A DNA stretch of 32,000 nt from Pseudodesulfovibrio piezophilus C1TLV30 (GTDB lineage: Bacteria > Desulfobacterota > Desulfovibrionia > Desulfovibrionales > Desulfovibrionaceae): positions 3,062,411 to 3,094,410 of the forward strand of contig NC_020409.1 of the NCBI RefSeq assembly GCF_000341895.1. The letters are read 5' to 3'. Shown piece by piece: positions 4,989-28,842 of the stretch. A program made the position numbers and the translations under genes. The notes under the pieces are model-generated. The model saw nothing but the letters and a program-made list of their open reading frames with translations, had not been told where the DNA came from and searched no databases. The stretch's first letter is position 1. Each line of letters opens with the position of its first letter.

Positions 4989-5064
<76 letters not shown>

Positions 5065-5141: not shown

Positions 5142-6329
5142 CTATGTGTCCGCCGCTTCCGACCGACTGTTTTCGGTGCCGGTCATGGCGTAGCGCGCGG
5201 CCAGACGATCTTGCGGACCGTCTTCCAACACGCCTTCAAGGTGGCTGTACCGGTCCGTCATGCGCAGGGTCTTGTGCCCGATCATGACGTTGGTCTCCTT
5301 GAGCGTGCAGCCTGCCTTCAGCATGTTCGTGCAATAGGTGTGGCGGTGATCGTGGAAGTGCAGGTCGTCGAAGTCGTGGTCTTTGCACAGCCCTTCCCAC
5401 GCGGCCTTGATGGACCTGAACGGGGTGCCGTCCATGTTGCCGATTACGAAATCGCCCTTGGTCGCCACGCCCCGTTTTTCTCGGTGTCGGGTCACATGCT
5501 CCAAACGAGCTTCGAGTGCTTTGCGGGTGCGGGGCATAATCCGGTGGGTTCGGGTCACCCCGTTTTTGGTGCGGTGGAACGTGATGTGGTTTTCCGCAAG
5601 GTCGACATTGGCCCACTTGAGGCTGAGGACTTCCTGGGTGCTGCACCCGTGCTCGACCGCCAGCAGGATCGCCAGGGGCAAGTAGTGCTTCGCCCTGCGC
5701 TGATGGGCCGCTGCCAGCAGCTTCTCGATTTCGAGGGGCTTCTGGGCCTTCTTGCGCTCACTGGCCTTCTCCGACAAGTATGGGATGTCCCGCGCAATGT
5801 TTTTTTCGATCAAACCCTGCTTCGCGGCCTGTGCGAACACTTGCTTGATGACAAACAATCGGCGGTTCGCCAACACGTTGCAGTTCTTGCCTTTTTCGCC
5901 CTTGGCCACAAGCTTCGCCTTGGTCTGTGCGGCGATGCCGATGCGGTAATCTCGAATGGTCTCCTCCTTGAGGTCATGGAGCAGGGTGTGCTTCCATCCC
6001 TTCAGGACCGGGGCCAGCAGGTAGCCGTACCCGGCATGGCTCGCCTGGGATATCTTTCCTTCCCCGAGCTTTCGGTCCCATTCGTCCCGACACAGCAGGG
6101 CAGCTTGCCCAAAAGTGGGCAGGGACTGCTGCTTCGGTTGCCGAGTTTCCTTGGTCGGCAATCTGCCACTGTCGAGCAGGGTGCGAAGCCGGTTGGCTTC
6201 TTCCTGGGCCAGGTCTTTCCGTCTTAGCGTCTTGTGGTATTCCTTCCTGTCCGTTTCCGGGTTGTTGAAGTGAATGACGTACGCTTTTCCCTTTTTCAGC
6301 GAACGGGTCGCGATGGTGACAGTAGCCAT
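5142..6329 (-). CDS. int: Tyrosine-type site-specific integrase
   Basis: 395-aa ORF next to the tRNA and reading toward it. The C-terminal catalytic region is HFHDHRHTYCTNMLKAGCTLKETNVMIGHKTLRMTDRYSHL (the H-x-x-R ... H ... Y signature of tyrosine recombinases). GGGAGA SD lies upstream within the end of the preceding gene. Confidence 0.9.
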   Translation of the reverse strand: MATVTIATRSLKKGKAYVIHFNNPETDRKEYHKTLRRKDLAQEEANRLRTLLDSGRLPTKETRQPKQQSLPTFGQAALLCRDEWDRKLGEGKISQASHAGYGYLLAPVLKGWKHTLLHDLKEETIRDYRIGIAAQTKAKLVAKGEKGKNCNVLANRRLFVIKQVFAQAAKQGLIEKNIARDIPYLSEKASERKKAQKPLEIEKLLAAAHQRRAKHYLPLAILLAVEHGCSTQEVLSLKWANVDLAENHITFHRTKNGVTRTHRIMPRTRKALEARLEHVTRHREKRGVATKGDFVIGNMDGTPFRSIKAAWEGLCKDHDFDDLHFHDHRHTYCTNMLKAGCTLKETNVMIGHKTLRMTDRYSHLEGVLEDGPQDRLAARYAMTGTENSRSEAADT

Positions 6330-6536: not shown

Positions 6537-6706
6537 GGTGTGGTTCTCATAGGAACGGAACGTAAAGCCTCCTACCGCCGTAGCGTACCCGTTTCCACTT
6601 CCCCTTCGGTTGAAGTTGCTCGTCAAAACTCAGCCAACAGTCCAGTTTGACACCGTAGGAGAAATAAAAGTCAAACGTCGGAAGGGGGCTCGGAGAGAAA
6701 AGAATG

Positions 6707-7705: not shown

Positions 7706-8423
7706 TGGAATTCTCCTTCCGTTAAAGGTTCGGGGCAACGCCCCGGGGCCAAGCAGATCGGACTTTTCCCGTTATCCGGGAAAGACCTGCCTGTGGCGGT
7801 AACCCCGCCACGCATCACCAGCTAAGGGAAGAATGAATGCCCGTTTCCCATTGGAAGAAGATTCCGGAAGACCCAGTCAATAAGGGATGCTGCCCCGCAA
7901 GTGCTAGTCTTGCGGATTGGATGGCAGCCGTAGGGGAAGTACGGCAATGACAAGCGTAGATACTTGTCATTCCACCATCGGCGGGTGCTGCGTTACAGCC
8001 TGCGTGTTTGGATTTGGAAATGGCCGTTTGTTTGGAAAACGGTGCGTGGATCGTTGAAGCACAAGGCTTCGTCATGCGTCATCAGTTCGGACTTCGTCAC
8101 GAACTTATGACGCGCATGAATGCGTTTTACCTCCTTTGGGTTACGGAATTATCCGGTGGATATGCCCAACCATATGACGCCGCAAAACCCTCGCGCAAGG
8201 TCCGGCGGCAGGGTTTCTGCCCCTCCTGCCGATTTTGCCGCGAGCGTGACACAAGCAGTCGCCGGGGCAAGACCAAGCCCTGCGGGCGGACGCTTCGCGG
8301 TCCGGCCTTGCCCCGACGACTTTGCTTGCGTCGAGATTATCGCAGGCGACGGCGAGAGGGATGGCGGGTTTGACTCAGGCTCAAGGGATTTCCTTGGCAA
8401 AGCTTGAGGAATACTATTCAGTA

Positions 8424-14330: not shown

Positions 14331-14414
14331 GTCACTGCCTCGAATTCATCAAGATACGTTTGAATTTTCGTTTTCCGTTGGAGTTAATCAATACACATTA
14401 TAGAAAGGGTTGAA

Positions 14415-14858
14415 AAGAAGCGGACGCGAAGCATACTCAATATGCGGCATTGGCACGATATGCTCAGTGACGGATGATGCTTATCGACCATCTGCCGCCT
14501 TTGCTCATTGGTCACTTCCGAGCGAAGGCCTTTTGTAAAAAATCATTCTCGATTGTGAGCTGTCCGATCTTTGCGTGCAGCTCCTTGAGATCGTTTTCTT
14601 CTTGGCTCTTGCGGCTCTGAACTTTGCCGGAAAAACCAGCAGCGATTAGTTCCTTGGCTTGCTTTTTTCAAGTCGAGACTTGATTGGGGTGAATTTTGTA
14701 CTTGCTGGCCAGCTCTGAGAGCGTCATCTCGCCCGATAATGCATCAAGCGCAATCTTGGCCTTGAACTCTGCTGAAAAGCGTCTTCTCTTGGACATTGCT
14801 TGAAGTCCTTCTCGTCGTTGGACTCCACCTTAATGGCCTGTCCAGAAAACCGCTACCA
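14415..14858 (-). mobile_element. IS3-family insertion-sequence remnant (left end, orfA, and the first ~30 codons of orfB only)
   Basis: Terminal sequence TGGTAGCGGTTTTCTGGACAGG (complement, starting at 14858) resembles an IS3/IS150-group end. orfA and the start of orfB (NEQRRQMVDKHHPSLSISCQCRILS) are recognisable. Similarity fades near 14415, so the catalytic DDE region and the right end are missing. Confidence 0.7.
14512..14796 (-). pseudogene. IS3 orfA (HTH transposase subunit) with an in-frame TGA
   Basis: Hand translation: MSKRRRFSAEFKAKIALDALSGEMTLSELASKYKIHPNQVST*KKQAKELIAAGFSGKVQSRKSQEENDLKELHAKIGQLTIENDFLQKAFARK. The stop (complement of 14668-14670) replaces the conserved Trp of the STWKKQ motif (TGG to TGA). 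Confidence 0.75.
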
Positions 14859-14917
14859 CCTCTGTTGTAATGTGCCGACGAGTTGTGGCACTCTCCCAAC
14901 AAGATATTTCGACGATT

Positions 14918-14934
14918 GTTCCATATTCTGGAAC
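14918..14934 (+). promoter_or_regulatory. Inverted repeat upstream of the AddB-like gene (candidate operator)
   Basis: GTTCCA-tattc-TGGAAC has perfect 6-bp arms and ends 56 nt before the ATG at 14991. Pattern only. Confidence 0.2.
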
Positions 14935-14990
14935 GATGTTGTGGCTATCTAGTCTGAAAGATCGCAGAACGCGGAAGGGAAACGGGCTTC

Positions 14991-17639
14991 ATGAAAATAC
15001 ATGTCGGATATCATTTTGACGGTGGGAGCTTCCCGGATGAGCTGGGAACAGATGTCGCTGCAGAGGGGGTAATCACGACCGGCCCGCTCGGCTTGATAAG
15101 TATCCTTGAAACCCGTTTGGGGCTGGTTGGGCCTAAGCCGGGGCAGCCGATTCGCATTGCCCGCTATTTGGCTGCAATGGAAACTCGTTGCAAAATGGGC
15201 GATCCCTTTTACAAAAAATCCTTTGAAGCAGACGGCTGGTCTTCAGCAAGGAGCTTGCTCGCCTTGCGGGATCAACTCCGATTGTCCGGATGGGACGGCA
15301 GCGATATGGGGGGCTCGGCGCGATTGGCCGACATGGTCGCTCTTGAGAAGGAATCGGACATTTTGCCGGGCCTTGCGGAGCGTATTGAAGAGATTCTCGG
15401 GGCTCTCGCCACGTATGGCATTTCAGGGATTTCAGAAATAGCTCTAAATGGGCATGAGCAAGTGGAATGGCCGTCCTGCTGGCGCAGGCTTTTTGCCGCA
15501 CTGGAAGCGGCGGATGTCAGCATCGACGTGGTTCAGCCCGAATATTCCTCGGGCACTTCCTCTGATCTGGAACTGTTACACCGGGCCCTTTGCGCTCAGG
15601 ATATTGGCGACGCAGCTTTTCAGGCGGACGGTTCGCTGATTTGCTTGAGCGCATCCACGGCCCTGGAGGCTGCCGATGCCTTGGGCGCGTGGCTTTCCGC
15701 CGAAGAAACCACGGAAGGAACCGTAGCCATTGTAGCAGAGTCCGTAACAGAAGTTCTCGATGCCGCCATGCGTCGATATGGTTTGCCTCGTCCTGGCGGC
15801 GGAGGTCGATCCCAATGGCGGGCGGCGTTGCAGTTGTTGCCCTTGGGGTTGGGCATTCATTGGGCTCCATTCGATCCGCAACGCTATCTGGAATTTTTGA
15901 CTGCCCCGATTTGTCCCTTGCATCCGGCCATGGCTGGTCGGCTTGTCCGCGCCCTTGAAAAGTCCCCTGGTCTGGGAGGGAAACAATGGCTTGGGGCCCT
16001 TGCCAAGTGTGAAGAGTGGGCGAAGAAGCGAGAAAATGCAGACGAGTTGCTGGAGGCTCTGCGTTTTTGGACCGAGGTCAAAAGGGTTTCGCCTCATGCC
16101 GGTTTGGATGTGGAGACGATCCGAACCGTCTGCCAACGTCTGAGCGACTGGTCCGCAAAGGGCGCAAGGTCCCGGGAAGGTGGGCTGATGGGCGCGGTTT
16201 CCGGCATGGCGTTGGAACTTGCCGAAGCCGCGAGGGCAACAGGCCGACAGGCCATCCCAAAATCGCAATTGGACCGGATGCTTGATTCGGTCATAGGCGG
16301 CGGTGCCGCAGTTGCAGACAGGGCCGAAGCTTCGCCGTGGGTTGTCTTGTCGCATCCGGGGCAGATCGGCGGGAACATCGATACAGTCATTTGGTGGAAT
16401 TTTTCCATGACGGGACTGCCGTCCGGGCGTTTGCCGTGGACCAATGGCGAAGTGGAAGCCCTAAGCAAGGCCGGTGTCCACATGGATGATGTTGATTTAC
16501 AACGGAACCTGGAGCTTTCATCCTGGCAACAGGTTGCGTGTAATGCCGGTAAGCGGCTGGTCCTGGTCATGCCGGAACAGGACGGAGGCGAACCGCTGGC
16601 CCCGCATCCCTTCTGGGAAAACATCGTTGCCGCCATGAATCTTTCCGAAGAGACGGATATCCCGGCCATGACGATATCGGCTTCACAGCTTCGTCGTGGT
16701 AACGGCGCACTGTTGGAAAGATCCATTTCCCTTGATCCCTTGCCGGAAAATGCGGCCCTGGAATTTCAGGAGGCATGGCAGGCTCCGAAAGACGTCATTG
16801 AAAGACGGAAAAAGGAATCGCCGTCGGGGATGTCGCAACTCATCAAGTGCCCTCTGGCCTGGGTGCTCAATCATGTGCTCAAGATCAGCGCCACCGGCAG
16901 CCCGACGCTTGCCGAGGGGAATCAACTCATCGGTTCGTTTTGCCATTCCATTGTCGAGGATCTGATCAACGAATCCCGCTGTTGGAAGCCGGAAGACGCT
17001 GTTGCCCGGGCAATGACCTTGTTTGAATCCCGGCTCAAGGAAATGGCGGCATCATATCTCCTGCCCGGCATGGAAACCAAACGGGAGCAACTCCGTTACG
17101 GGCTTCGCCGTGCGGTCTTCGATTTGTTCAACCGCATCGAGGGCGCAAAGCTCTCAATCGTCGAAAGCGAAAGGGAAGTTGAGCGGATTGACGCGGGAGG
17201 CCAGACATATCGGGGTTACGTCGATATCAGCCTTGAGGATACCAAGGGCAATCCCGTCGTCTGGGATATGAAGTGGACCAACAAGAGCAAGTACCGGCGT
17301 GAGGAATTGGAAAAGGGCATCGCCCTCCAACTGGCGGCCTATTGCTGGATGCTCGACAAGGACGACCTCCCTGCGTTCGGCGCCTATTACATGCTGGCCC
17401 AGGCTCAACTCATTTCCTCCTCGGCCCCATGGCTCCCTCCGGAAGACGTTGTTGATTCCGATTTGAAAGCCACATGGGAGATGGTGCGGGAACGATACGA
17501 CGCCATCATTGATCGCCTGATGACCGGGGATGTGGAGGCCGTCGCGCCCAGTGACGACGGCGAGGAGAAGGAGTTCGATTTCGGCACAGGCTGCTTCTTC
17601 TGTGATTACGCGATGGTTTGCGGGGTTGGATATGAGTAA
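14991..17639 (+). CDS. AddB/RexB-like PD-(D/E)XK nuclease subunit with a Cas4/AddB-type Fe-S cysteine set and no recognisable Walker A
   Basis: 882-aa ORF. Nuclease motif GYVDISLED...VVWDMKWT (D at 17223-17225; D-M-K at 17265-17273). Cysteines: C in LIKCPLAW (16848-16850) plus a C-terminal CFFCDYAMVC, i.e. C-x2-C-x5-C (17592-17621). I could not find a GxxGxGK[ST] motif by eye. Confidence 0.75.
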   Translation: MKIHVGYHFDGGSFPDELGTDVAAEGVITTGPLGLISILETRLGLVGPKPGQPIRIARYLAAMETRCKMGDPFYKKSFEADGWSSARSLLALRDQLRLSGWDGSDMGGSARLADMVALEKESDILPGLAERIEEILGALATYGISGISEIALNGHEQVEWPSCWRRLFAALEAADVSIDVVQPEYSSGTSSDLELLHRALCAQDIGDAAFQADGSLICLSASTALEAADALGAWLSAEETTEGTVAIVAESVTEVLDAAMRRYGLPRPGGGGRSQWRAALQLLPLGLGIHWAPFDPQRYLEFLTAPICPLHPAMAGRLVRALEKSPGLGGKQWLGALAKCEEWAKKRENADELLEALRFWTEVKRVSPHAGLDVETIRTVCQRLSDWSAKGARSREGGLMGAVSGMALELAEAARATGRQAIPKSQLDRMLDSVIGGGAAVADRAEASPWVVLSHPGQIGGNIDTVIWWNFSMTGLPSGRLPWTNGEVEALSKAGVHMDDVDLQRNLELSSWQQVACNAGKRLVLVMPEQDGGEPLAPHPFWENIVAAMNLSEETDIPAMTISASQLRRGNGALLERSISLDPLPENAALEFQEAWQAPKDVIERRKKESPSGMSQLIKCPLAWVLNHVLKISATGSPTLAEGNQLIGSFCHSIVEDLINESRCWKPEDAVARAMTLFESRLKEMAASYLLPGMETKREQLRYGLRRAVFDLFNRIEGAKLSIVESEREVERIDAGGQTYRGYVDISLEDTKGNPVVWDMKWTNKSKYRREELEKGIALQLAAYCWMLDKDDLPAFGAYYMLAQAQLISSSAPWLPPEDVVDSDLKATWEMVRERYDAIIDRLMTGDVEAVAPSDDGEEKEFDFGTGCFFCDYAMVCGVGYE

Positions 17640-20600
17640 GAAAATCGAATTGATAAGCGCGAGTGCCGGGTCCGGCAAGACATACTCCCTGACGGAAAGA
17701 TTCGTGAAAAGCCTTGATGAGGGCGTTCGGCCCGAAAGCGTCGTCGCCACCACCTTCACCAAGAAAGCGGCGCAGGAGATCGGCAGCCGATTCCGTTCGA
17801 AGCTGTTCGAACAGGGACGTGCGGAAGACGCGCAGCGCGTGTTTGGCGGCTATATAGGCACGGTCAACGCGGTCTGTGGAGCACTCCTCAAGGATTACGC
17901 TTTCGAGGTCGGCCAATCCCCGACGTTGGAAGTGGTGCCGGACGGCGAGGATGCCGCCCTCTTCCGCGTGGCTGCTGCCGATGCCGTCGGTCGAAAGGCC
18001 AGGCAGATCGTCCCGCTTGTGCGCTCCCTGGAAATCGAAAAGTGGGAAGACATCGTCAAGGGCATCATCGACAAGGCCAGGGCGAACGCCATTGACCGCA
18101 AGATGATGTTAGAAAGCGGAGAGCGTTCCTGGGAATTGCTCAGGGAGTTGATGCCCGATCCGATTTCCGAAACCGAAGGCAAAAAACTCGATACGGAAAT
18201 CGTGCGCGAATTGAAGCGGACGATCGGCGCACTTCCTTCCGATGGGGATACGAGCAAAGGCACCTTGGGAGCAAAAAAAGACCTTCAGGCCATCCATCGT
18301 ACGTTATCCCAAGAAAGCATTCCCAATTGGGCTACATGGGCCAAGCTGTCCAAAATCAAGCCCACATCAAAAAGTGCGCATGAGGTGGAAACGCTCCATG
18401 AACTGGCCGGACAGTTCCTTCAACATCCCAGGTTCCACAATGAGGTCCGCCAACTCATCACTCTGCTGTTTGACTGCGCCGCCGAAGCAGCGGGCTTGTA
18501 TCAACAGCACAAGCGGACCCTGGGGCTGATCGATTTCACGGATCAGGAAGCCTTGGCCCTGAAGATGGTCGAGGACGCCGCTGTGGCCGACCAACTGAAA
18601 GAGAGGTTGGACATGGTCATGGTCGACGAGTTCCAGGATACCAGTCCCATCCAGTTGGCCTTGTTCCTCAAGCTGTCCAAACTGGTGGACCGGTCGGTCT
18701 GGGTGGGCGACCAGAAACAGTCGATCTACGCCTTCCGTGGTTCGGACCCGGCATTGATGGATGCCGTCATCGATTCGCTTGGCGAGCCGGAGACGCTGCC
18801 GAACAGTTGGCGGTCACAGTCTGCCCTGGTCGATTTTGCCAGCGAATACTTCGCGGTGGCCTTCGGCCAGCTCGGCATCCCCGAAAAACGGGTGCGGCTG
18901 ACCTCCAAGGTGAGGTCGACCACGCCGAAGAGTCCGCATCTCAAATGCTGGCGGTTTGAATCGAAGAACAAGCCCGATGACAGGTTGTGCCTTGTTGGCG
19001 GCATCCAATCCATGCTCGCCGATACGGCGGCATATGCAATTCTCGACAAGACGACAAAAAAAGAGCGTACGCTCAAGGCCGGGGATATCGCAGTCCTCTG
19101 CATGACCAATGACAATTGCCGTGATGTCGCCGCCCTGCTGGAAGAAAACGGCATTCGTGCCGCTATTCCTCGAACAGGACTCATGAAGCGTCCAGAGATC
19201 GTCCTCGTTATGGCTGCCTATCGCTACCTTCTCAGTCCTGAAGACACGCTGGCTGTCGCTGAGCTGGCCAAGATATTTGGCCTGGAGGATTGGTTCTCGG
19301 TGGCCCTGCAAAACGGGATGGATGCAGTCAAGGATCTGCATCCGATGTTCGGACGTTTGGATGATGCTCGTCATGAGCTTGCCTCGTTGACGCCGTCCGA
19401 GGTGCTGGACCTGGCCATCGACCTTTCCGATGCGGGACGCATGGCCCTGGGGTGGGACAACCCTGCCCTCAGACAGGCCAATCTGGACGCCCTCAGGGGG
19501 CACGCCCTAGGGTATGAGTCCACCTGTAAGGCGCGGCGATGCGCCTGCACTCCCGCCGGTCTCATCAATTATTTGCATCAACTGAAAGGGGACGATGCGG
19601 ACTCCCAGGCTGTCGGCGTGGGCGACGATACCGTCCAGGTCCTGACCTATCACCGGTCCAAGGGGCTCGAATGGCCCGTGGTCATCCTGACGGATCTTGA
19701 GTCCGGCGAAAAGGGGAAGCCGTTCGGGCTGAGCGTGCAATCGTCCGACGCCCCGTTTGACCTGGATGATCCCCTGGCTGGCCGGTGGCTTCGCTACTGG
19801 CCCTGGCCCTTTGGTCTGCAAAAGAAAATCGAGGGATTCTCCGATGTGGTTGAAGAAAGCGATGCGGGCCGGACCGCATTCGAGCGGGAGCGCCGGGAGC
19901 GCCTGCGTTTGTTGTACGTCGGAATGACGCGCGCCAGGGACTACATGATTCTCTCAGCCAGAAAGGAAGGCAAAGGGGCACCGACAGCTTGGCTTGACTC
20001 CTATACGGATGCTGGCGGCAATCGGATCGTGTCCTTGCCCAACGTGGCTGGAGTTGCGGAGATTACCGTGGGCGGAAAGACGTTCCCCATTGAGACCGTA
20101 TGCCTCACGCCGATTGGGGAAGTGACACAGGCCGTTGCCGGTCAAAACCATGCCCCAGTTTTGCCGGAGAAGGTGAAGGCCCATCCCCCGGCCCGTTTCG
20201 TGCCGAGCAGCGATACCATCGACGAGGACAATATCTCTGTGGAGTTCTTCGAACTGGGAGCGCCCCTGCTGATCAAGGCCACGGATTCCCGCGTGGATTT
20301 GGGAAATGCGGTGCATGCCTTCCTGGCAGTGGCTTCACCGGAGCAGGACGAGGCGACCCTCAGGACGCGGGCGGAACGGATCGTGACCGGCTTGGGTTTG
20401 AAAGACCTCACTGCCGACATGCTGCTCGAAATGCACCAACGATTGCGGACCTTCATCACAACGACAATCGATCCGGCAGGCACGGGCGAAATCCTCACGG
20501 AGTGGCCGATCCATCTCAAGCGAGGATTGCAAAAAGGCAGCGGCTGGATCGACATGCTGTGCCGCCAACCGGACGGCGACGTCATTATCGACCATAAAAC

Positions 20601-20766
20601 GTCATTGGGCGGCAAAGATGTGCTGGAGAAAAAGGCAATCGGCTATGCTGGACAGTTGGCCACGTATGGGGAAGCACTTCAAAAGGCGACCGGGATATCT
20701 GGACGGGGGATGTGGTTGCATTTCGCGTTGGCGGGGATGATGGCTAGGGTGAATATTCAAGGATAA
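17632..20766 (+). CDS. AddA/RecB-like UvrD-family SF1A helicase with a C-terminal RecB-type nuclease domain
   Basis: I prefer the start at ATG 17632 (MSKKIELISASAGSGKTY), which overlaps the upstream stop as ATGAGTAA. Motifs: AGSGKT 17665-17682, DEFQD 18625-18639, VGDQKQSIYAFRGS, WRSQ, TYHRSKGLEWPVV, YVGMTRARD. Nuclease: GNAVHAFL ... WIDMLCRQPDGDVIIDHKTS (D 20551-20553; D-H-K 20590-20598) ... YAGQLATY. Confidence 0.85.
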   Translation: MSKKIELISASAGSGKTYSLTERFVKSLDEGVRPESVVATTFTKKAAQEIGSRFRSKLFEQGRAEDAQRVFGGYIGTVNAVCGALLKDYAFEVGQSPTLEVVPDGEDAALFRVAAADAVGRKARQIVPLVRSLEIEKWEDIVKGIIDKARANAIDRKMMLESGERSWELLRELMPDPISETEGKKLDTEIVRELKRTIGALPSDGDTSKGTLGAKKDLQAIHRTLSQESIPNWATWAKLSKIKPTSKSAHEVETLHELAGQFLQHPRFHNEVRQLITLLFDCAAEAAGLYQQHKRTLGLIDFTDQEALALKMVEDAAVADQLKERLDMVMVDEFQDTSPIQLALFLKLSKLVDRSVWVGDQKQSIYAFRGSDPALMDAVIDSLGEPETLPNSWRSQSALVDFASEYFAVAFGQLGIPEKRVRLTSKVRSTTPKSPHLKCWRFESKNKPDDRLCLVGGIQSMLADTAAYAILDKTTKKERTLKAGDIAVLCMTNDNCRDVAALLEENGIRAAIPRTGLMKRPEIVLVMAAYRYLLSPEDTLAVAELAKIFGLEDWFSVALQNGMDAVKDLHPMFGRLDDARHELASLTPSEVLDLAIDLSDAGRMALGWDNPALRQANLDALRGHALGYESTCKARRCACTPAGLINYLHQLKGDDADSQAVGVGDDTVQVLTYHRSKGLEWPVVILTDLESGEKGKPFGLSVQSSDAPFDLDDPLAGRWLRYWPWPFGLQKKIEGFSDVVEESDAGRTAFERERRERLRLLYVGMTRARDYMILSARKEGKGAPTAWLDSYTDAGGNRIVSLPNVAGVAEITVGGKTFPIETVCLTPIGEVTQAVAGQNHAPVLPEKVKAHPPARFVPSSDTIDEDNISVEFFELGAPLLIKATDSRVDLGNAVHAFLAVASPEQDEATLRTRAERIVTGLGLKDLTADMLLEMHQRLRTFITTTIDPAGTGEILTEWPIHLKRGLQKGSGWIDMLCRQPDGDVIIDHKTSLGGKDVLEKKAIGYAGQLATYGEALQKATGISGRGMWLHFALAGMMARVNIQG

Positions 20767-20797
20767 TGACTCCCCCTTCATGGGAGAAGGATACGAC

Positions 20798-22312
20798 ATG
20801 GCTGACCAAATGAATTTGTTTAAGGCATACTCCGGTGGGAACCGAGAGGATCTCGAGCATATGGATCGATTGGAAAACAATGTGACGCGCGCCTTTGTTA
20901 TTACGTTGCAATACATTCATGCCGATGAGCCGGATGTGTTTCGGCGTATCCTCGGGGAGATAACTGGGGATAGGGGGAAACGGTTTGAACCAAAGCAAGT
21001 ATGGTTCGATTTGCAGAGTGGGACCCAGGAACTAGTGGCCGCTGCGCAAAAAGATGGGGTCGAGAAAATAATTTTGGCAATTTCCTCACGGAAGGAGGAA
21101 ACTCCGAGGTTTTCCTGTGTAACCCAGTTCGATCGTTTGTTGAAGGACTATGAGGATGTGCCCGACAATGACCAGAAAAAATTTCTAAAGTCTTTAGCCA
21201 AGTGGCAGAAGAAAGGAGAAAGCGAAAAAGAGGTGCGTATTTCCCTGAGGGGCACTGAGTATTCTTTTTCTCCGCACGAAGCTGAAAATGTCTACCGACT
21301 CGTACACGATAATATCCCTGATGGATGGATTGTGGCCCCAGGACGCTATGCGATCCTGATAGAATCGAAAATTGGGAGCGGTCGTATCTGTGAGGAGCAG
21401 CTTTTTCGTCATGCGACTGGGAACAAGGGTTTTAAGCTGTCCGCTCAAGATGTGAAAAATGATGGCAGTGTACAAATCGTCTGTGTCACTTGGGGAAAAG
21501 TCTGCGACGCCTTGGTTGGGGCGAGCAAAGAGCTTAAGGGAATGTCCTTGAAGATAACGGAACAATTTTTGGAGTATATGGAAATGAGCGGGGAAAAACT
21601 GAATTTTGAATTTTTCTTGAGAGGGGCTTACGATGAAAATGGGATGCGTAATCAGTTCCCATTATTGGTTGATAAGATGCAACAAAAGCTCAAGGAAAGG
21701 GATATCCCGCTCGAAGCAGAGAATCGCCCTTTGACAGGTGTCTGGCAGCGATTCAAATATGGGGCGGAGGGAGACATGTTCTATACCTTGCGGGCCTCAG
21801 AAGGCGGGGTAGAGATCTCACTGACTGCTCATAACTCGCTGAAAAAAAAGTTGTATTTAAACAAGGCATGGGCAGGTATTCTCTGGGATATGTGTAGTGG
21901 CTCGGGGAAATGGCTCAGGCACCGTTACCAAGTGATGCTTCATGACTATCGACTGGTGGATAGGCAAAAGGGACAGATGAAAGGAGAAAGCCAAGAGTTG
22001 TTTAATTACCGGTTCACCCTGGGAACGGTGGGAACAAAGGGAGACTTGGATTCCTTGGTCGAGATTGGCAAACAGCTTGTCAAGCTTAAGGACGTAAAGC
22101 AGTTGGATATGACGTTTAAAGTTGGAGTGATCGATGGGAGCAAGATCAAACATGGAGAAGAGGGGACTTTGAGGGCTGAAAATGCCAAGCTGCTCTCTGA
22201 CCCAGAAACCCTTCTGGAATCATTCTGCGATTTTGTAGAAAATACATTTCCTGTATATATGGATGTGCTGAAGCACAAGAGCCAACGTAAGGGCGCCACA
22301 AAGGAAGGATAG
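20798..22312 (+). CDS. Hypothetical protein with an N-terminal PD-(D/E)XK-like motif and a ~300-aa C-terminal region of unknown function
   Basis: 504 aa from ATG 20798, which has GGGAGAAGGA ending 6 nt upstream (track start is 20780). Motif succession: LENNVTRAF ... IPDGWIVAPGRYAILIESKIG (D 21320-21322; E-S-K 21362-21370) ... EQLFRH. G+C is clearly lower than in the two upstream genes. No family recognised for the rest. Confidence 0.6.
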   Translation: MADQMNLFKAYSGGNREDLEHMDRLENNVTRAFVITLQYIHADEPDVFRRILGEITGDRGKRFEPKQVWFDLQSGTQELVAAAQKDGVEKIILAISSRKEETPRFSCVTQFDRLLKDYEDVPDNDQKKFLKSLAKWQKKGESEKEVRISLRGTEYSFSPHEAENVYRLVHDNIPDGWIVAPGRYAILIESKIGSGRICEEQLFRHATGNKGFKLSAQDVKNDGSVQIVCVTWGKVCDALVGASKELKGMSLKITEQFLEYMEMSGEKLNFEFFLRGAYDENGMRNQFPLLVDKMQQKLKERDIPLEAENRPLTGVWQRFKYGAEGDMFYTLRASEGGVEISLTAHNSLKKKLYLNKAWAGILWDMCSGSGKWLRHRYQVMLHDYRLVDRQKGQMKGESQELFNYRFTLGTVGTKGDLDSLVEIGKQLVKLKDVKQLDMTFKVGVIDGSKIKHGEEGTLRAENAKLLSDPETLLESFCDFVENTFPVYMDVLKHKSQRKGATKEG

Positions 22313-22447
22313 AAATGTGTCGTCACTTCGAGTCTTTTAAACCATCAATTCTATAATAAGATATGACCAGCAAAGATCAGTGCATTAAAAAATATTTTTT
22401 GAGGAAGTCGTATTTTGTTGACTAAACAATATACCTCATTACCAATC

Positions 22448-22491
22448 AAAAAAATATAAAGTCCACACATCTGCTTGATGGGTGGACTTTT
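22448..22491. terminator. Hairpin terminator between convergent genes (better T tract on the minus strand)
   Basis: 8-bp stem aagtccac / gtggactt (22459-22466 / 22482-22489) with a 15-nt loop. A7 at 22448-22454 gives T7 after the hairpin on the minus strand. Only TT-TT follows on the plus strand. Confidence 0.5.
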
Positions 22492-22534
22492 GTGGCAGAA
22501 ATTATGCTGACGTAGATGCCTCCGTCAATTGCAC

Positions 22535-22894
22535 CTAATCCCATCTCAACATCTTCTCAAAGGTGTTAGGTGCACGTTCCTTGAGCTTCATTCGGTAAAT
22601 ATATTCCCAATAATACTTCGGATCAATCGGCGAGAGCAGGGGTATATCATACCGCAGTCCAGTGCGTGGGTCTAACATGTTGTAGTAATATGAATCGTTC
22701 TTTTCAACTTGGCTAGCAAGTTCCTCGTCCATTTGCAATTTTTGCGAGGCGAACTGGAATGCGTTCGTATTGTTTGCCATTGCCACCAGAACAACATCTT
22801 TGTCATTTTGGAGGTCTTCAGATACAAGTCGCAGGTTCATCCCGTCTTCTTTGACAGCCTCCAAGGCAGCCTGTTTTTCAGTGATGGCAATCAT
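22535..22894 (-). CDS. DUF4116-repeat protein
   Basis: 119 aa from ATG 22894, which has AGGAGA 6 nt upstream (track start is 22948). AALEAVKEDGMNLRLVSEDLQNDKDVVLVAMANNTNAFQFASQKLQMDEEL fits the DUF4116 repeat pattern as I remember it. Confidence 0.6.
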   Translation of the reverse strand: MIAITEKQAALEAVKEDGMNLRLVSEDLQNDKDVVLVAMANNTNAFQFASQKLQMDEELASQVEKNDSYYYNMLDPRTGLRYDIPLLSPIDPKYYWEYIYRMKLKERAPNTFEKMLRWD

Positions 22895-23172
22895 CGCGTT
22901 TCTCCTTTTGAATTGATTTGCGCTGATGATGCCTGAATCTTGTTCCACAACTTGGAACGTTGTTGCCTGAATATTGTCGGCTTCAAGGTCGATTTATTTG
23001 TGTCGCAGAGGCCCAGCGGCTATTGGCCGTATTTCCCCATCATTGAGCGTATCTCCTCCCCCACTGCCTGCTGGGGGCAGTCTATGGACTCCATCGTGCC
23101 GCCTGTGAAAGAGCGGGAGTAGGTATGATCGTGTCTGTTGTTTGGGGTATCGCCTGTTTGTCTTTCGTTGTA

Positions 23173-23832
23173 TCAACTGGTCAAATATACTCCGTATTCT
23201 CGATACAACCGATAAACAGTGTTAAAAATAATGTCTGATTTTCTTTCGCGAACCAAATCATTTCTGAAAATACAATGCAATTCTGGGGCAAATCCATCCA
23301 CTCTTATAAGCGGGAAGAGCATGTTGAAGTAAGCCTCGTCCAAACAAGTGCAGTCAGCGAGCAGCACAGTAAAGCAGCATTGGTTGGGGGGAATGACGAA
23401 ATTAGCTGATTTTATTTTCAATCCATATCTTAATGCAACAGCAAATTCCATGATTGCTGCGGCCATTGGATTGAAATGCCTGCTTTTAATCTCAAAAACA
23501 ACAGCTTTGTCTTCCGTGTTTTCATTGTAGGCGATTATATCAAGTTGTTTTCTTGGGAATCCTTTGGCTTTCCTTTTGTCCCATTCGATAGTTGGATTTG
23601 CCTCAGCCTTGATTTCGGGAAGGGTGTTAAAACCAGCAATAATGGCATTCTCAAAGGATTTTGAGAAAAAGGTCCTGTCCCCTGGATTTGTTTGCGTTCG
23701 TGCTTCCATCTGGTTTGAAATGGTTTGGAAAAACAGTTGAGCTGCTGAGTGATATCTATCCCTGCGCGAAATTGTTGAACAGACCTTTGAAACGGAGAGA
23801 AGGCCGTCTATGTATTTACTTGTGCCAGTCAC
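23173..23832 (-). CDS. Hypothetical 219-aa protein with a PD-(D/E)XK-like motif, translationally coupled to the WYL regulator
   Basis: GTG start (complement of 23830-23832) lies directly after the TAA of the upstream gene (23833-23835). AGGAGA (23838-23843) is 5 nt upstream. Motif: FENAIIAGF ... QLDIIAYNENTEDKAVVFEIKS (D 23539-23541; E-I-K 23485-23493). Low G+C. Confidence 0.6.
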   Translation of the reverse strand: MTGTSKYIDGLLSVSKVCSTISRRDRYHSAAQLFFQTISNQMEARTQTNPGDRTFFSKSFENAIIAGFNTLPEIKAEANPTIEWDKRKAKGFPRKQLDIIAYNENTEDKAVVFEIKSRHFNPMAAAIMEFAVALRYGLKIKSANFVIPPNQCCFTVLLADCTCLDEAYFNMLFPLIRVDGFAPELHCIFRNDLVRERKSDIIFNTVYRLYREYGVYLTS

Positions 23833-24840: not shown

Positions 24841-24873
24841 ACGGGTCTCCTTGTGGCGAAATCGGTCGGTCAA

Positions 24874-24947
24874 AGGCAGCACTGCCTCTGGATGCAATCT
24901 TTGATACCAAATAAACCAATATGAAGGAAACCCATAATATTATCGGG
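24874..24947 (-). promoter_or_regulatory. Candidate promoter/operator region of the WYL operon (two palindromes)
   Basis: AGGCAG-ca-CTGCCT at 24874-24887 and CCCATAATATTATCGGG at 24931-47 (core ATAATATTAT is a perfect palindrome). Both lie in the 134-bp gap between the AAA+ gene stop and the preferred WYL start. Pattern only. Confidence 0.3.
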
Positions 24948-24974
24948 ATGATCGTATCTGGCCGAGTGGGCTGA

Positions 24975-27185
24975 CTAAAACCCGATGGCGCGCTGTCTGC
25001 CCGTTTCGTTTTTAATTGCGGATTCCCTTGCCAGGGCTTGGACAAGATCTGCGTGGCGGATTTTGTTCTTCGGGTAGAACGCGAATCGGTCTCGTATGAT
25101 CTTGAAGTCTCCAGGTGTCAGGTTTTTTAGATGGCAAATGGCCTGGAGTTCATTGTCGGTCACCTGTCGGCTTACGAGAGGAGCAAGCATCTTATCGTAA
25201 AAGGAAGCCACGCCCTTCTTGCCCAGAAAATCGAAGAAAATTTTGTGATTGAATCTTCGCAGTGATGCCGAATCCAGTTCGTCCATACGGTTAGTGGTGC
25301 AGATGAGCAGCCCCCGGAAGTGTTCCATCTGGGTCAGGAATTCGTTGACCATGGACGTTTCCCATGATCGAACCGCTTTGTCCCGGCTGAAGAGCAGGCT
25401 GTCCGCTTCATCGATGACCAATACGGCCCGTTGCTTTTCGGCTTGCCGGAATGCCTTGGCTATTTGTTGCTCGCTTTGTCCTACCCACGCGCTCAGGAGG
25501 TCGCTCGTGCGCTTCACTATCAGCTCCCGTTTGAGATGCCGGGATAGATAACGGGACAGTTCCGTTTTTCCAGTTCCCGGAGGGCCGTAGAAAAGCAGGT
25601 TCATGTTGACGCGCAATTCGTCTGAATCCCTTTTGAGGTAGGCGTTGAATGCGTCCAGTTGCTCCAGGAGTGCCGACATGTCTGCATCCAGGTTAAGACC
25701 TTCCAGCGAATAATCGTTTTCAATGACGTCATCCCGCTTGATGGATCTGTCGCCGGATATCAACTGCTGGCTGGCTATGAGGGATCGCTCCACCGCTTGG
25801 AAGAATGGCCTTTTCTTTCGACCGGCTATTTCCTTGGCCTTTTTGATGGCCATATCAATGGAACCTGCGGACAGCGGATAGCGGACGGCAAATGTTTTCA
25901 TTTGATCCCTGGTGAGGAGTCCCAACACCTTGTTCTTGGCAGCAACCCGCTGCCAGATGTTGATGCGCTCGTCACGGCCGAGTTTCTGGAACTTCACGCT
26001 GTAGGCAAAACGCCGCATGACCGAATCCGGAATGCCGAAAGTGTCGTTCGTTATCCATATTGTCCTGGTGCCGGGACGCTCAAGGAATTCGTTGAGCCAT
26101 CCTTTATCCTGCTTGTCGCCCGAGAAGATGTAAGCGAATTCGGTGTTGAGCAGGTTGTCCGCTTCGTCGACGATCACCAACCCTTCCTGTCCATTCCCCG
26201 TCATATTGAGACAAGCTTCGAGAGCTTTTTTGCGTGCTGAGGAATCGCTGTTGTCAGTTGTCCTGACATTATAGGCATTTTGCCCGATTTTATGAGCTGC
26301 CGTCGCGGCGAAGCTGCTTTTACCCGCGCCGGGCTCGCCGTACAAAAGGATATGCGTCGGAGCCGTGTTGTCGGCTTTCAAAAGGGCGAGGATGTGTTCG
26401 GCCACGCCTTCTTCAAGGGGAAAGTACTCTAGGGGAAGGAGTTCTTTCTTCGCCTGCTTGTAGAAAAGGTCCTCCATGTTCTCGAGCGGGGTGGTGAAAA
26501 TTGATTCGACGACCCGGTCAACCGTCAGCGATCCGTATTTGTCTACCAACTCAAGTCTGGAGATTTTCCCGGAAATGGCTTTGTTGAAATCCTGTTGCGA
26601 GATATTCAGCATGGTGGAGAAAACTCCTGATTTCCCCTGCTCTCGACAGCTCAAGTGGGAATCAAAGTATTCATTGAGTATATCCCAATTCTCGAGCAGA
26701 TGAACAGCGAGGATTATAGCCACCTCCGTTTCATTGAGTCGAAAGAATGTTTGCAGAATCTTGCATCCTTTATCGAGGTTGGACTCGTGCGTACCGGGGA
26801 AGTCGTGGAGGCGGTTGCTCAATTGCTCATGCAGAATTGATGCGAGTGGATGAGATAGGGCTACCCCGCATTTCTTTATCAGAATTTCAATATTGTCTGC
26901 GAGGATGCTGTGATCTTCCAAGTCGTCGAAGTGTTGAAGACGTTCCTCCAATTCTCCGGGGGTGAGCTTTTGGGGGCCGGTAACAGTGATCAGTTCCTTG
27001 CATTCGGCCAAAAATTCAGGAGCCCTGTCATTCAGGGCTTTGAGAGAAAACCTGATTGCGTTTTCGTCAAGCGGGATTCCCTTGCTGAGCAACCGCATAA
27101 ACCAGGTGATGCTGGTTTCAAAAACATAGATATCGTCGTCGCTCAAAAATTGGTCAGGAATACGTTCGATGGAGCCAAAGCCCAT
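24975..27185 (-). CDS. Tandem AAA+ ATPase (two P-loop modules, the second of classical SpoVK/Cdc48 type) with a ~270-aa N-terminal domain of unknown function
   Basis: 736 aa; GGAGG lies 5 nt before ATG 27185. Module 1: LLYGEPGAGKSS ... LVIVDEADNLL. Module 2: LLFYGPPGTGKTELS ... VLVIDEADSLL ... ICTTNRMDELDSASLRRF (a second-region-of-homology-like segment). Confidence 0.8.
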   Translation of the reverse strand: MGFGSIERIPDQFLSDDDIYVFETSITWFMRLLSKGIPLDENAIRFSLKALNDRAPEFLAECKELITVTGPQKLTPGELEERLQHFDDLEDHSILADNIEILIKKCGVALSHPLASILHEQLSNRLHDFPGTHESNLDKGCKILQTFFRLNETEVAIILAVHLLENWDILNEYFDSHLSCREQGKSGVFSTMLNISQQDFNKAISGKISRLELVDKYGSLTVDRVVESIFTTPLENMEDLFYKQAKKELLPLEYFPLEEGVAEHILALLKADNTAPTHILLYGEPGAGKSSFAATAAHKIGQNAYNVRTTDNSDSSARKKALEACLNMTGNGQEGLVIVDEADNLLNTEFAYIFSGDKQDKGWLNEFLERPGTRTIWITNDTFGIPDSVMRRFAYSVKFQKLGRDERINIWQRVAAKNKVLGLLTRDQMKTFAVRYPLSAGSIDMAIKKAKEIAGRKKRPFFQAVERSLIASQQLISGDRSIKRDDVIENDYSLEGLNLDADMSALLEQLDAFNAYLKRDSDELRVNMNLLFYGPPGTGKTELSRYLSRHLKRELIVKRTSDLLSAWVGQSEQQIAKAFRQAEKQRAVLVIDEADSLLFSRDKAVRSWETSMVNEFLTQMEHFRGLLICTTNRMDELDSASLRRFNHKIFFDFLGKKGVASFYDKMLAPLVSRQVTDNELQAICHLKNLTPGDFKIIRDRFAFYPKNKIRHADLVQALARESAIKNETGRQRAIGF

Positions 27186-28796: not shown

Positions 28797-28842
28797 AATG
28801 GCATTCAAGAGGTCGTGGGTTCGATTCCCTCCAGCTCCACCA
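28797..28842 (+). repeat. attR: 46-nt copy of the tRNA-Ala 3' part (no 5' half, so not a gene)
   Basis: Identical to 5019-5064. The sequence upstream (gttcagtgccaacaaa) has no acceptor or D-arm counterpart. Confidence 0.9.

Follow-up and report, generated by a model that had tools for sequence, protein, structure and literature searches.

What is the role of an AddAB-like helicase-nuclease that is carried by a genomic island? The question is raised by two overlapping genes found in a window of 32,000 nucleotides from Pseudodesulfovibrio piezophilus C1TLV30 (contig NC_020409.1, positions 3,062,411 to 3,094,410; coordinates given here are those of the window). Our analysis identifies the pair as a mobile accessory helicase-nuclease of the AddAB/RecBCD class, carried as cargo by a 23.8-kb tRNA-Ala integrative defense island. 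On the basis of guilt by association, the chances are about even that it acts in defense as an accessory enzyme, by destroying linear DNA, which makes it a candidate for such a role.

The Integrative Island

A tRNA-integrated island had been proposed in a preliminary description of the window, and its hallmarks are present: a tRNA-Ala(ggc) gene, an adjacent integrase, and a 46-bp stretch of the tRNA 3′ end that is repeated exactly (Table 1). The two repeats place the island at approximately 5065–28842. Its GC content is a mosaic, with values of 0.56–0.61 over the pair and 0.43–0.49 at 20.5–23.5 kb; the flanks outside the island range from 0.43 to 0.52.

Within the window, the pair is flanked by ProA on one side and by an AAA2-WYL module on the other. 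The large gene divergent from the pair had been called Hhe-like, but ProA/PDC-S37 is the better name; the protein scores 2165 bits against NF058533 (cut-off 1500) and 1205 bits against the PADLOC PDC-S37 model, whereas its score against the Hhe model is 831 bits (cut-off 2000). It is a separate, single-gene defense system. The last gene of the island encodes a PcfJ-like protein, a name that comes from a protein of conjugative plasmids. In three other loci (L013, L006, and L170), PcfJ genes are found upstream of the pair, and PcfJ is a companion in loci of the Desulfovibrionales type.

Table 1. Coordinates of the island boundaries and genes in the 32,000-nucleotide window
Feature	Coordinates	Strand	Basis or remarks
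tRNA-Ala(ggc)	4989..5064	+	ARAGORN; 3′ 46 nt (5019-5064) form the left attachment repeat
Tyrosine integrase	5142..6329	-	Pfam; beside the left repeat
HTH_17 (excisionase-like) gene	6333-6626		Pfam; after the integrase
Integrase_1 gene	6746-7738		Pfam; after the HTH_17 gene
ProA/PDC-S37 anti-phage protein, 1968 aa	8424..14330	-	NCBIfam NF058533; PADLOC PDC-S37
AddB-like subunit, 882 aa	14991..17639	+	Inactivated SF1-helicase-like N-terminal fold; C-terminal Cas4/AddB-type PD-(D/E)XK nuclease (predicted)
AddA-like subunit, 1044 aa	17632..20766	+	SF1A UvrD-type motor, motifs I to VI intact; C-terminal RecB-type nuclease (predicted)
Rare downstream gene, 510 aa, candidate PD-(D/E)XK protein	20780..22312	+	Invariant D181, E195, K197
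WYL-WCX transcription-regulator-like protein, 354 aa	23833..24897	-	Pfam WCX and WYL; PADLOC WYL models
Double AAA+ ATPase (AAA2), 736 aa, Cdc48/VAT-like	24975..27185	-	Pfam AAA, twice
PcfJ-like protein, 392 aa	27282..28460	-	Pfam PcfJ; last gene of the island
Right attachment repeat	28797..28842	+	Exact repeat search; 46-bp copy of the tRNA-Ala 3′ end

The Helicase-Nuclease Pair

An AddAB-type layout with one motor and two nucleases, as first described for this locus, is confirmed at the level of sequence motifs and of the fold predicted for the AddB-like subunit. In that subunit, the putative PD-(D/E)XK site is D745...D759-M-K761 (17223–17273), with Q780 and Y784 as further residues, and a four-cysteine set is formed by C620 (16848–16850) and C868-x2-C871-x5-C877 (17592–17621); a search with the pattern [AG]x4GK[ST] found no Walker A motif in this protein. 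Pfam assigns its residues 610–877 to PDDEXK_1 (E 1e-20). The closest PDB match of its AF2 model (pLDDT 85.9) is Bacillus subtilis AddB (3u4q_B; E 1e-22, full length, TMq 0.55–0.58), followed by AdnA (E 4e-19) and RecC (E 3e-16).

The AddA-like subunit carries the Walker A motif ASAGSGKT (K16 at 17677–17679), the motor motifs DEFQD at residue 332, GDQKQSIY at 359, YHRSKGLE at 673, and VGMTRA at 763, and a nuclease motif, D974...D987-H-K989 (20551–20598), with QLATY at 1008 (Q1008 and Y1012). Its Pfam matches are UvrD-helicase (E 1.5e-42), UvrD_C, and PDDEXK_1. When the motifs of both proteins were re-read from the translations, every position reported earlier proved to be in frame and to encode the expected residue; the reported overlap is also present, the stop of the AddB-like gene and the start of the AddA-like gene sharing the 8 nt ATGAGTAA.

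Conservation was assessed in 51 AddB-like and 54 AddA-like proteins of 26–81% identity. All ten key residues of the AddB-like subunit are invariant, as are the AddA-like motif residues apart from two conservative variations, a pattern that indicates purifying selection on the predicted catalytic residues. In all 75 loci whose sequence extends downstream, the AddB-like gene precedes the AddA-like gene; the two genes share 4 nt in 46 loci and 8 nt in nine. The pairing is obligate: the genes are always adjacent, in one order, and usually overlapping.

Judged by model scores, the pair is not a canonical AddAB, and it misses every AddA, AddB, and RecB equivalog cut-off. A comparison with the AddA family models, proposed at the outset, gave the AddA-like protein 175 bits against addA_alphas (TIGR02784; cut-off 860), 172 against addA_Gpos (708), and 142 against recB (696). 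The AddB-like protein has no match in NCBIfam or PADLOC; the AddB models in question are presumably TIGR02773 for the B. subtilis type and TIGR02786 for the alphaproteobacterial type.

With B. subtilis AddAB (PDB 3U4Q and 4CEH; AddA is NCBIfam TIGR02785) the pair has in common the two-subunit layout, an AddA subunit that joins an SF1A motor to a RecB nuclease, and an AddB subunit with an inactivated helicase-like body, a RecB/Cas4 nuclease, and a four-cysteine iron-sulfur site. However, the AddB-like protein is approximately 280 residues shorter (882 versus 1166) and lacks a Walker A motif, its sequence similarity to B. subtilis AddB is barely detectable (profile E 0.05) and lies outside the nuclease active site, and the pair is mobile, borne on islands or plasmids, whereas B. 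subtilis AddAB is core. The alphaproteobacterial AddA model is the best NCBIfam match of the AddA-like protein and covers nearly its full length (residues 75–1018), but at the low score given above and with the AddB-like partner unmatched. Alphaproteobacterial AddB likewise is not known to have a functional ATP site.

AdnAB of mycobacteria and RecBCD of Escherichia coli belong to the same enzyme class, and RecB is among the sequence matches of the AddA-like protein; AdnAB, however, has two active motors, and RecBCD has three subunits with one nuclease and a RecD motor, whereas the pair combines a single motor with two nucleases and has no RecD-like gene. Gabija resembles the pair in teaming a UvrD-family helicase (GajB) with a nuclease in a defense island. 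The top PADLOC matches of the AddA-like protein are GajB models (E 6e-35), with coverage of the shared helicase core only; GajB, at approximately 500 residues, lacks a nuclease domain, its partner is the ATPase-TOPRIM protein GajA, and Gabija has no AddB-like subunit.

Distribution and Mobility

The pair belongs to a distinct, widespread, and unstudied family of about 2,050 clusters, whose patchy distribution takes in ten or more groups at phylum or class level (74 species genomes) and which moves horizontally. It occurs on 27 plasmids, 17 of them conjugative; relatives with 30–35% identity are found on Lysinibacillus plasmids and on large rhizobial plasmids. Among 2.9 million viral contigs, a single locus was found. 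In the three closest genomes (P. nedwellii, P. profundus, and P. portus; 76–81% identity), the pair occupies three unrelated sites. The pair is mobile-island cargo rather than a core gene in conserved synteny. Its site is conserved in three related Pseudomonadales genomes, a pattern that vertical inheritance in that group could explain.

Genomic Neighborhood

Defense genes adjoin the pair in every locus whose neighbors were annotated individually, and a pooled scan of 23 further loci agrees. Each of the three closest Pseudodesulfovibrio genomes has the pair among defense or mobile genes, which include MmeI and Type ISP restriction enzymes, SNF2+PLD, TerB, and a dynamin-patatin pair. In the other individually annotated loci, the neighbors are GmrSD, Dcm-Vsr, Wadjet, a cNMP/TIR/E2 cluster, AbiC, TIR, NERD, IS21, DUF4238, ThiF/MPN, RES-Xre, DUF262, restriction-modification, AbiEii, and Type I restriction-modification; DISARM, BREX, and Abi-type genes are also found. 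In the pooled scan, 112 neighbor proteins match 116 Pfam families, led by GmrSD_N, ResIII, SNF2, and ARPP-1 and including McrBC, BrxC, and Cas1; PADLOC matches include DrmD (E 4e-203), DrmA, BrxH, MADS, and SoFic.

The sole recurrent neighbors of the pair are the WYL and AAA2 genes (23833–27185), which the preliminary description passed over. Of 25 well-flanked loci, 11 (this window among them) have one or both within approximately 10 kb of the pair (AAA2 in nine, WYL in eight); AAA2 is found there across several phyla, and WYL adjoins AAA2 in many loci. A co-oriented AAA2-WYL-AddB-AddA cluster is present in L046, L055, L058, and L068, and L171 has the same order with intervening open reading frames. 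AAA2 and WYL are possible partners of the pair, although the association may be one of location alone.

The AAA2 profile matches Cdc48, p97, and VAT across two stretches (E 1e-48). AAA2 shares an AAA+ core with IetA of the IetAS system, a related model against which it scores 104 (cut-off 510), but it has two Cdc48/VAT-like AAA+ modules, and no IetS protease is found here. The WYL-WCX protein has no detectable sequence match to any solved structure; it contains the WYL and WCX domains of the defense-system regulators BrxR/CapW and of DriD, and is probably a sensor or regulator. The WYL regulator DriD is reported to be activated by single-stranded DNA (PMC9186387).

For the 510-aa gene downstream of the pair, five relatives were found among 5.8 billion proteins; one is 100% identical and comes from P. 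piezophilus. An earlier suggestion that it forms one system with the pair fares poorly: the gene does adjoin the pair at both sites with readable context (this window and L170, where it follows the AddA-like gene), but it is absent from all 79 pair loci compared. Rather than a partner throughout the family, it is an optional addition. It has no match in Pfam, NCBIfam, PADLOC, or PHROG, and a PDB search with its structural model (pLDDT 71.5) found nothing at E ≤ 0.001; the invariant D...ExK motif suggests that the product may be a PD-(D/E)XK nuclease.

Possible Function

The AddB-like and AddA-like proteins would load as a heterodimer onto free ends of double-stranded DNA, where the AddA-like motor would unwind the duplex and each RecB-type nuclease would cut one strand, so that linear invading DNA would be destroyed; possible targets are injected phage genomes, rolling-circle or restriction-cut intermediates, and broken plasmids. 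The circular chromosome would be spared because it has no free ends. Since the pair diverges strongly in sequence from the host end-processing enzyme, it may also escape phage inhibitors of that enzyme. The role of AAA2 and/or the WYL-WCX protein, nearby in roughly one third of loci, is a more speculative step: they probably regulate or aid the pair, for example through sensing of the single-stranded DNA that it produces. A widespread, unstudied family located in defense islands and on plasmids is a good candidate for a novel system against phages or plasmids. Against this reading, the AddB-like protein is matched by no defense library.

That the pair is instead an ordinary, vertically inherited Desulfovibrionales AddAB that merely looks foreign is largely refuted and very improbable: its closest relatives are all Pseudodesulfovibrio, but it lies between exact attachment repeats, at different sites in the three closest genomes, has the distant plasmid relatives described above, and fails all of the equivalog cut-offs. 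An accessory repair or recombination enzyme is a less remote alternative, though still rather unlikely. AddAB-like break resection would feed RecA, as an extra or replacement copy with no immune role, to the benefit of the host or of the carrier element (for example, in the upkeep of large plasmids and islands). The full AddAB layout, a predicted fold closest to AddB, the large rhizobial plasmids, and the conserved Pseudomonadales site are consistent with this. RecBC is reported to be absent from Desulfovibrio vulgaris (PMC1193525), a gap that a transferred enzyme of the AddAB type could fill, so the P. piezophilus island copy could serve ordinary break repair. Housekeeping recombination genes, however, undergo little horizontal transfer (PMC1193525), whereas the pair is nonsyntenic even at 76–81% identity; its plasmid hosts include alphaproteobacteria and Bacillaceae, clades (rhizobia included) in which almost all members have canonical AddAB (PMC1193525, section 8); and its neighbors are consistently defense genes, not repair genes.

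Strict conservation of both nucleases fits DNA destruction better than protection, which argues against the improbable alternative of counter-defense or self-protection, in which the pair would favor the survival of an incoming plasmid or island through repair of restriction or CRISPR cuts, by outcompeting host RecBCD/AddAB at ends, or as an inhibitor decoy. Carriage by conjugative plasmids and an integrative island, and the PcfJ-like genes beside the pair in several loci, would suit such a role, but the pair is nearly absent from viral contigs and its neighbors are defense systems rather than the anti-defense genes of conjugation leader regions. It is tentatively possible that the Cdc48-like ATPase, the WYL regulator, and the pair act only together as a four-gene system, with pair-only loci as eroded or differently partnered versions. 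AAA2 is missing from most pair loci, complete genomes and plasmids included, and about two thirds are without AAA2 and WYL; of approximately 28 AAA2 loci found independently, just two contain a clear pair, with no more than a weak UvrD-type match in a third (L121), and order, orientation, and distance (70 to 6,500 bp) vary. In favor of a four-gene system, the association spans several phyla at 25–47% identity and includes the co-oriented clusters, a distant AddB/AddA-like pair adjoins AAA2 in L119, and P. profundus retains a WYL remnant 5 kb from its pair. AAA2 loci that lack the pair often neighbor another end-processing nuclease, namely DUF2779 (L090, L093, L106, L108, L112, and L115) or SbcCD (L103).

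Architecture and Conservation of the Pair

The AddB-like and AddA-like proteins have the AddAB-type layout of one motor and two nucleases that the preliminary description had read from their motifs; Pfam matches, motif positions, and a predicted AddB fold bear this out, and all the motif coordinates reported earlier for both proteins are in frame and correct. By Pfam and motif positions, the AddA-like protein pairs an SF1A UvrD-like helicase, its ATPase and helicase motifs all present, with a C-terminal RecB-family nuclease. The AddB-like protein matches only a PDDEXK_1 domain in Pfam by sequence, and no Walker A motif was found in it. A profile built from the AddB-like family matches AdnA and AddB in the PDB only marginally (E 0.02–0.05). 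The AF2 model of the protein (pLDDT 85.9, pTM 0.79) has as its best PDB match chain B of Bacillus subtilis AddB (E 1e-22, TMq 0.55–0.58), followed by AdnA and then RecC. Since the match to AddB extends over the whole length, protein 1 can be read as a short AddB, with a predicted inactivated helicase-like body and a Cas4/AddB-type nuclease.

A word-indexed search recovered 73 relatives of the family, and an exhaustive profile search of 1.84 billion representatives gave 2,053 clusters at E <= 1e-30; among the best 150 of these 2,053 clusters, nearly all are full-length matches (835–984 aa). Residue conservation was assessed in 51 AddB-like and 54 AddA-like proteins from fetched loci, with 26–81% identity. 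The nuclease residues (D-D-K-Q-Y in the AddB-like protein), Walker A and B, motifs III and VI, and four AddB-like cysteines (C620, C868, C871, and C877) are invariant; the two exceptions among the motif residues both lie in the AddA-like protein, a single Q-to-H change in the DEFQD motif and an alternation of A and S in motif V. The four cysteines form a putative iron-sulfur cluster site, as in the AddB class. An AddA-like gene directly follows the AddB-like gene in all 75 loci with downstream sequence, with an overlap of 4 nt in 46 loci and of 8 nt in nine. The sequences thus indicate that the two genes form an obligate unit, kept by purifying selection for an enzyme with one motor and two nucleases. 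A promoter and terminator scan of 14300–23200 gave counts at chance level.

Relation to Known Enzymes and Defence Systems

The enzyme class of the pair is itself well known: the AddA-like protein combines the SF1A motor and RecB nuclease of an AddAB-type A subunit, and the AddB-like protein the predicted inactive helicase body and four-cysteine RecB/Cas4 nuclease of a B subunit. RecBCD has three subunits, with an SF1B motor in RecD and a nuclease-less RecC, whereas the nuclease of protein 1 is intact; no RecD-like gene was found in the island with Pfam or NCBIfam. AdnAB has active Walker A motors in both subunits, unlike the pair.

Described earlier as AddAB-like, the pair falls below the canonical AddAB cut-offs when compared with the AddA and AddB equivalog models. 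The AddA-like protein scores 175 against a cut-off of 860 (TIGR02784) and 172 against 708 (TIGR02785) with the NCBIfam AddA models, and 142 against 696 with recB, a fifth to a quarter of the equivalog cut-offs; the AddB-like protein has no NCBIfam match at E <= 0.01. A canonical AddAB or RecBCD housekeeping locus is core, vertically inherited, and syntenic, whereas the pair is island-borne, non-syntenic in the three closest genomes, and found on plasmids.

In PADLOC-DB v2.0.0, the AddB-like protein and the product of the 510-aa gene directly downstream of the pair have no match, and the AddA-like protein matches only the helicase core of the GajB and DRT-helicase models. Gabija was rejected, as the island has no GajA-like or TOPRIM gene. 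A literature search found no AddAB-like defence system; the mentions of AddAB read in reviews concern the host enzyme. A separate mobile defence-island family of the AddAB class appears to be undescribed in the libraries and literature searched, and so does the association of this family with a Cdc48-like ATPase and a WYL regulator.

The Island and Its Other Cargo

The proposal that the pair is carried by a tRNA-integrated island is upheld: exact 46-bp repeats and an integrase beside a tRNA-Ala gene mark out about 5065–28842 as a 23.8-kb integrative island. This is probably GI7 of the P. piezophilus genome paper, described there as 21.9 kb with 11 ORFs, a GC content of 51.9%, a tRNA, an integrase, and a function listed as "unknown" (PMC3559428, Table S1), an identification that we infer; that paper and its supplements do not mention RecBCD or AddAB genes (PMC3559428).

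Features of the island
Feature	Position	Strand	Remarks
tRNA-Ala(ggc)	4989–5064		
Direct repeat of tRNA-Ala 3′ end	5019–5064 and 28797–28842		46 bp, exact
Tyrosine integrase	5142–6329		Followed by an HTH_17 gene and an Integrase_1 gene; Pfam
ProA/PDC-S37 anti-phage protein	8424–14330	-	1968 aa; NCBIfam 2165 bits, cut-off 1500; PADLOC PDC-S37
IS3-family orfA remnant	14530–14799	-	In-frame stop; divergent intergenic region between ProA and AddB-like genes
AddB-like gene	14991–17639	+	882 aa
AddA-like gene	17632–20766	+	1044 aa
Third gene	20780–22312	+	510 aa
DUF4116 gene and 219-aa gene	22535–23832	-	DUF4116 gene 137 aa; between third gene and WYL gene
WYL-WCX regulator	23833–24897	-	
Double AAA+ ATPase (AAA2)	24975–27185	-	
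PcfJ-like gene	27282–28460	-	

The gene divergent from the pair had been called Hhe-like; it scores 831 against a cut-off of 2000 with the Hhe model, and ProA is the better name. The term "PDC-S37" was not found in the literature searched. The IS3 remnant shares 72% identity with an IS3 transposase encoded on a plasmid of P. profundus. The DUF4116 and 219-aa genes occupy the lowest-GC part of the island (0.43–0.45); locus L170, colinear in other respects, lacks both, which suggests that they were inserted later. A relationship between the 219-aa gene (23173–23832) and the 227-aa gene between the WYL and AAA+ genes of locus L080 was considered and rejected, the two being unrelated. PcfJ-like genes recur in one or two copies beside the pair or AAA2 in Desulfovibrionales-type loci (L013, 8580–9872; L006, 2390–4985; L170, 724–3243).

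Mobility and Spread

The three closest homologues of the pair (76–81% identity) lie in the complete genomes of P. nedwellii, P. profundus, and P. portus, at three unrelated sites. A scan of one genome per species, with an alignment of 14 sequences as the query, gave 74 loci, in Desulfovibrionales, Syntrophomonadaceae, Zetaproteobacteria, Alphaproteobacteria, Pseudomonadales, Holophagales, Spirochaetes, Victivallales, Actinobacteria, Obscuribacterales, and others. Sites differ within the Zetaproteobacteria and within the Syntrophomonadaceae; one is common to three related Pseudomonadales genomes. L007, from a metagenome-assembled genome labelled "archaeon," is almost identical around the AddB/AddA junction to L008, from a Thermodesulfobacteriaceae metagenome-assembled genome, so its archaeal label is doubtful and may reflect mis-binning.

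The family also occurs on 27 plasmids, 17 of them conjugative, with hosts that include Rhizobium, Sinorhizobium, Agrobacterium, Bradyrhizobium, Methylocystis, Variovorax, and Lysinibacillus. Canonical AddAB is reportedly close to universal among firmicutes and among most alpha- and betaproteobacteria (PMC1193525); judged from that survey of clades, the plasmid-borne pair is therefore very probably a second enzyme in such hosts.

A phage origin was rejected, as a single pair locus was found among 2.9 million viral contigs and the sole phage-labelled record with the pair looks bacterial. This record (L171; GenBank MT835507, "UNVERIFIED: Bacteriophage sp.") carries PLD, AAA2, WYL, the AddAB-like pair, and a Type I restriction-modification system in a 26-kb stretch in which no phage genes were seen; it is probably a bacterial defence island and no phage.

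Defence Neighbourhoods

The idea that orthologues of the pair recur beside defence genes held in every locus annotated individually.

Neighbours of the pair in individually annotated loci
Locus or set	Neighbours
P. nedwellii	WCX regulator, dynamin-like, patatin, ERF, MmeI-type enzyme
P. profundus	MobA, coupling protein, IS elements, Type ISP restriction enzyme, WCX remnant
P. portus	TerB, HSP70-like gene, SNF2+PLD
P0011 contigs	MmeI-type, SNF2, Dcm-Vsr, GmrSD; then WYL, 227-aa gene, double AAA+ gene
Arthrobacter	NERD, IS21, TerB
P0029 contigs	Wadjet JetABC, BrxR, cNMP/TIR/cyclase/E2 cluster, AbiC, TIR
Three plasmids	DUF4238, ThiF/MPN, RES-Xre, multiubiquitin/ThiF, DUF262, restriction-modification, AbiEii, SNF2

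A pooled scan covered the 112 neighbour proteins within 4.5 kb of the pair, AAA2 and WYL left out, in 23 genome loci flanked by 5 kb or more on each side. It matched 116 Pfam families, most commonly GmrSD_N, ResIII, ARPP-1, and SNF2; McrBC, BrxC, Cas1, and transposases are among the others, and PADLOC matches include DrmD (E 4e-203), DrmA, BrxH, MADS, and SoFic. The enrichment of defence genes around the pair is qualitative.

Among the other neighbours, a four-gene run lies between the AddA-like gene and AAA2 in L013 (15906–19563) and also in L065; it encodes a PDDEXK_4 nuclease, a DSP-type phosphatase ("Swiss Army Knife" type), an ADP-ribosylglycohydrolase, and a GGACT-like protein. In the Arthrobacter locus L082, a fusion of ADP-ribosylglycohydrolase and DSPc lies near the pair.

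A Recurrent AAA+ ATPase and WYL Regulator

All-against-all clustering gave only two recurrent neighbour families of the pair, the double AAA+ ATPase and the WYL-WCX regulator. By family HMMs, the ATPase is present in nine, the regulator in eight, and either in 11 of the 25 genome-scan loci flanked by 5 kb or more on each side. This association extends over Desulfobacterota, Alphaproteobacteria, Victivallales, Spirochaetes, and Holophagales, and is found in the human-gut contig L171 (26% identity) and, in L119, next to a distant pair. The genes differ in order and orientation between loci: in four Acidocella-type loci, AAA2, WYL, AddB, and AddA are closely spaced in that order and point the same way, and in the window the two genes are convergent to the pair, 3.1 kb (WYL) to 4.2 kb (AAA2) downstream. 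In P. profundus (L003), IS elements and a Type ISP restriction gene separate the pair from a truncated WCX/WYL gene 5 kb downstream (21080–21700), which is 77% identical to residues 155–351 of the window's regulator; the locus looks like a decayed version of the window-type arrangement.

The association is weaker when followed from the ATPase. About 28 metagenome loci were found via AAA2. A clear pair is present in L107 and L119 only, and L121 has a weak UvrD-type match; WYL is present in many. Loci lacking the pair include six with DUF2779 proteins (among them L090, L093, L112, and L115), one with SbcCD (L103), and two with GmrSD. This distribution suggests that AAA2-WYL is a separable two-gene module with a tendency to accompany DNA-end nucleases. 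Read by eye, the N-terminal region of these DUF2779 proteins has a Cas4-like cysteine and D..ExK pattern; its candidacy as a homologue of the AddB-like nuclease was dropped after a weak profile comparison (E 0.019, probability 2.4%), so no homology is claimed.

The ATPase resembles the Cdc48, p97, and VAT unfoldases. An assignment to Iet (IetA-IetS) was rejected (IteA model, 104 against a cut-off of 510), and no protease gene (IetS) was found near AAA2; the AAA2-WYL module is unnamed in defence libraries. DriD is a WYL regulator activated by single-stranded DNA (PMC9186387), so it is a reasonable guess that the regulator here would sense resection products.

Possible Roles of the Pair

The usual view of RecBCD and AddAB is that of single-copy housekeeping enzymes for which degradation of phage DNA is incidental, and dedicated phage-borne inhibitors target both. 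The architecture, conservation, pairing, mobility, and defence setting of the pair are observed; destruction of linear foreign DNA is the role that its context favours, and we give it an even chance of being right. By analogy with established AddAB behaviour, the two proteins would form a heterodimer that loads on DNA ends, is driven by one motor, and turns one nuclease on each strand. If the pair proves protective, end-dependent DNA destruction would be a transferable immune module as well as a by-product of repair, and the idea of a bacterial back-up enzyme against phage inhibitors would be directly tested. The main rival, that the pair is a plain accessory repair enzyme, is unlikely but kept alive by the report that Desulfovibrio vulgaris lacks RecBC (PMC1193525). 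A pair serving repair only would be a clear case of a recombination enzyme spreading horizontally, which is reportedly uncommon. A counter-defence role on behalf of mobile elements we regard as quite improbable.

An obligate four-gene system, in which the ATPase and the regulator are required partners, overlaps the reading of the pair as a destroyer of foreign DNA and is a tentative possibility, on the unlikely side. A broader scheme is speculative and improbable as a whole: the pair would be the effector of a new mobile anti-phage and anti-plasmid system, a spare end-destroyer unseen by invader inhibitors, with four genes in its full form and with the AAA+/WYL genes shared with other nucleases. 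In the four-gene form, the regulator would sense single-stranded DNA made by the pair, and the Cdc48-like ATPase would clear the invader DNA or the pair of end-protecting or inhibitor proteins; in other genomes, the AAA+/WYL module may serve other end-processing nucleases (DUF2779 proteins and SbcCD). The recurrent link to the ATPase and regulator is a second lead, which could reveal what activates or assists such nucleases.

The Gene Downstream of the Pair

It had been proposed that the third gene might form one system with the pair; it is absent from all 79 family loci compared, and the arrangement of the window is shared by L170. There, a relative with 61% identity follows two PcfJ genes and the AddB-like and AddA-like genes, and precedes convergent WYL and AAA2 genes. 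The third gene is an optional extra in one sublineage, and its GC content (0.44–0.49) is below that of the pair. Among 5.8 billion proteins its product has five relatives, one of which, named from Pseudodesulfovibrio (formerly Desulfovibrio) piezophilus, is 100% identical to it; exact-sequence look-ups gave no record for this product or for the AddB-like protein. Its product has no match in Pfam, NCBIfam, or PHROG, and its structure model (pLDDT 71.5) has no significant match in the PDB; the earlier designation as a nuclease is tentative and draws only on the D...ExK motif (D181...E195-x-K197), whose three residues are invariant in the five sequences. Elsewhere, the gene directly after the AddA-like gene encodes PDDEXK_4 (L013) or GmrSD (L080), and on an R. 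etli plasmid a hypothetical gene is followed by DUF262.
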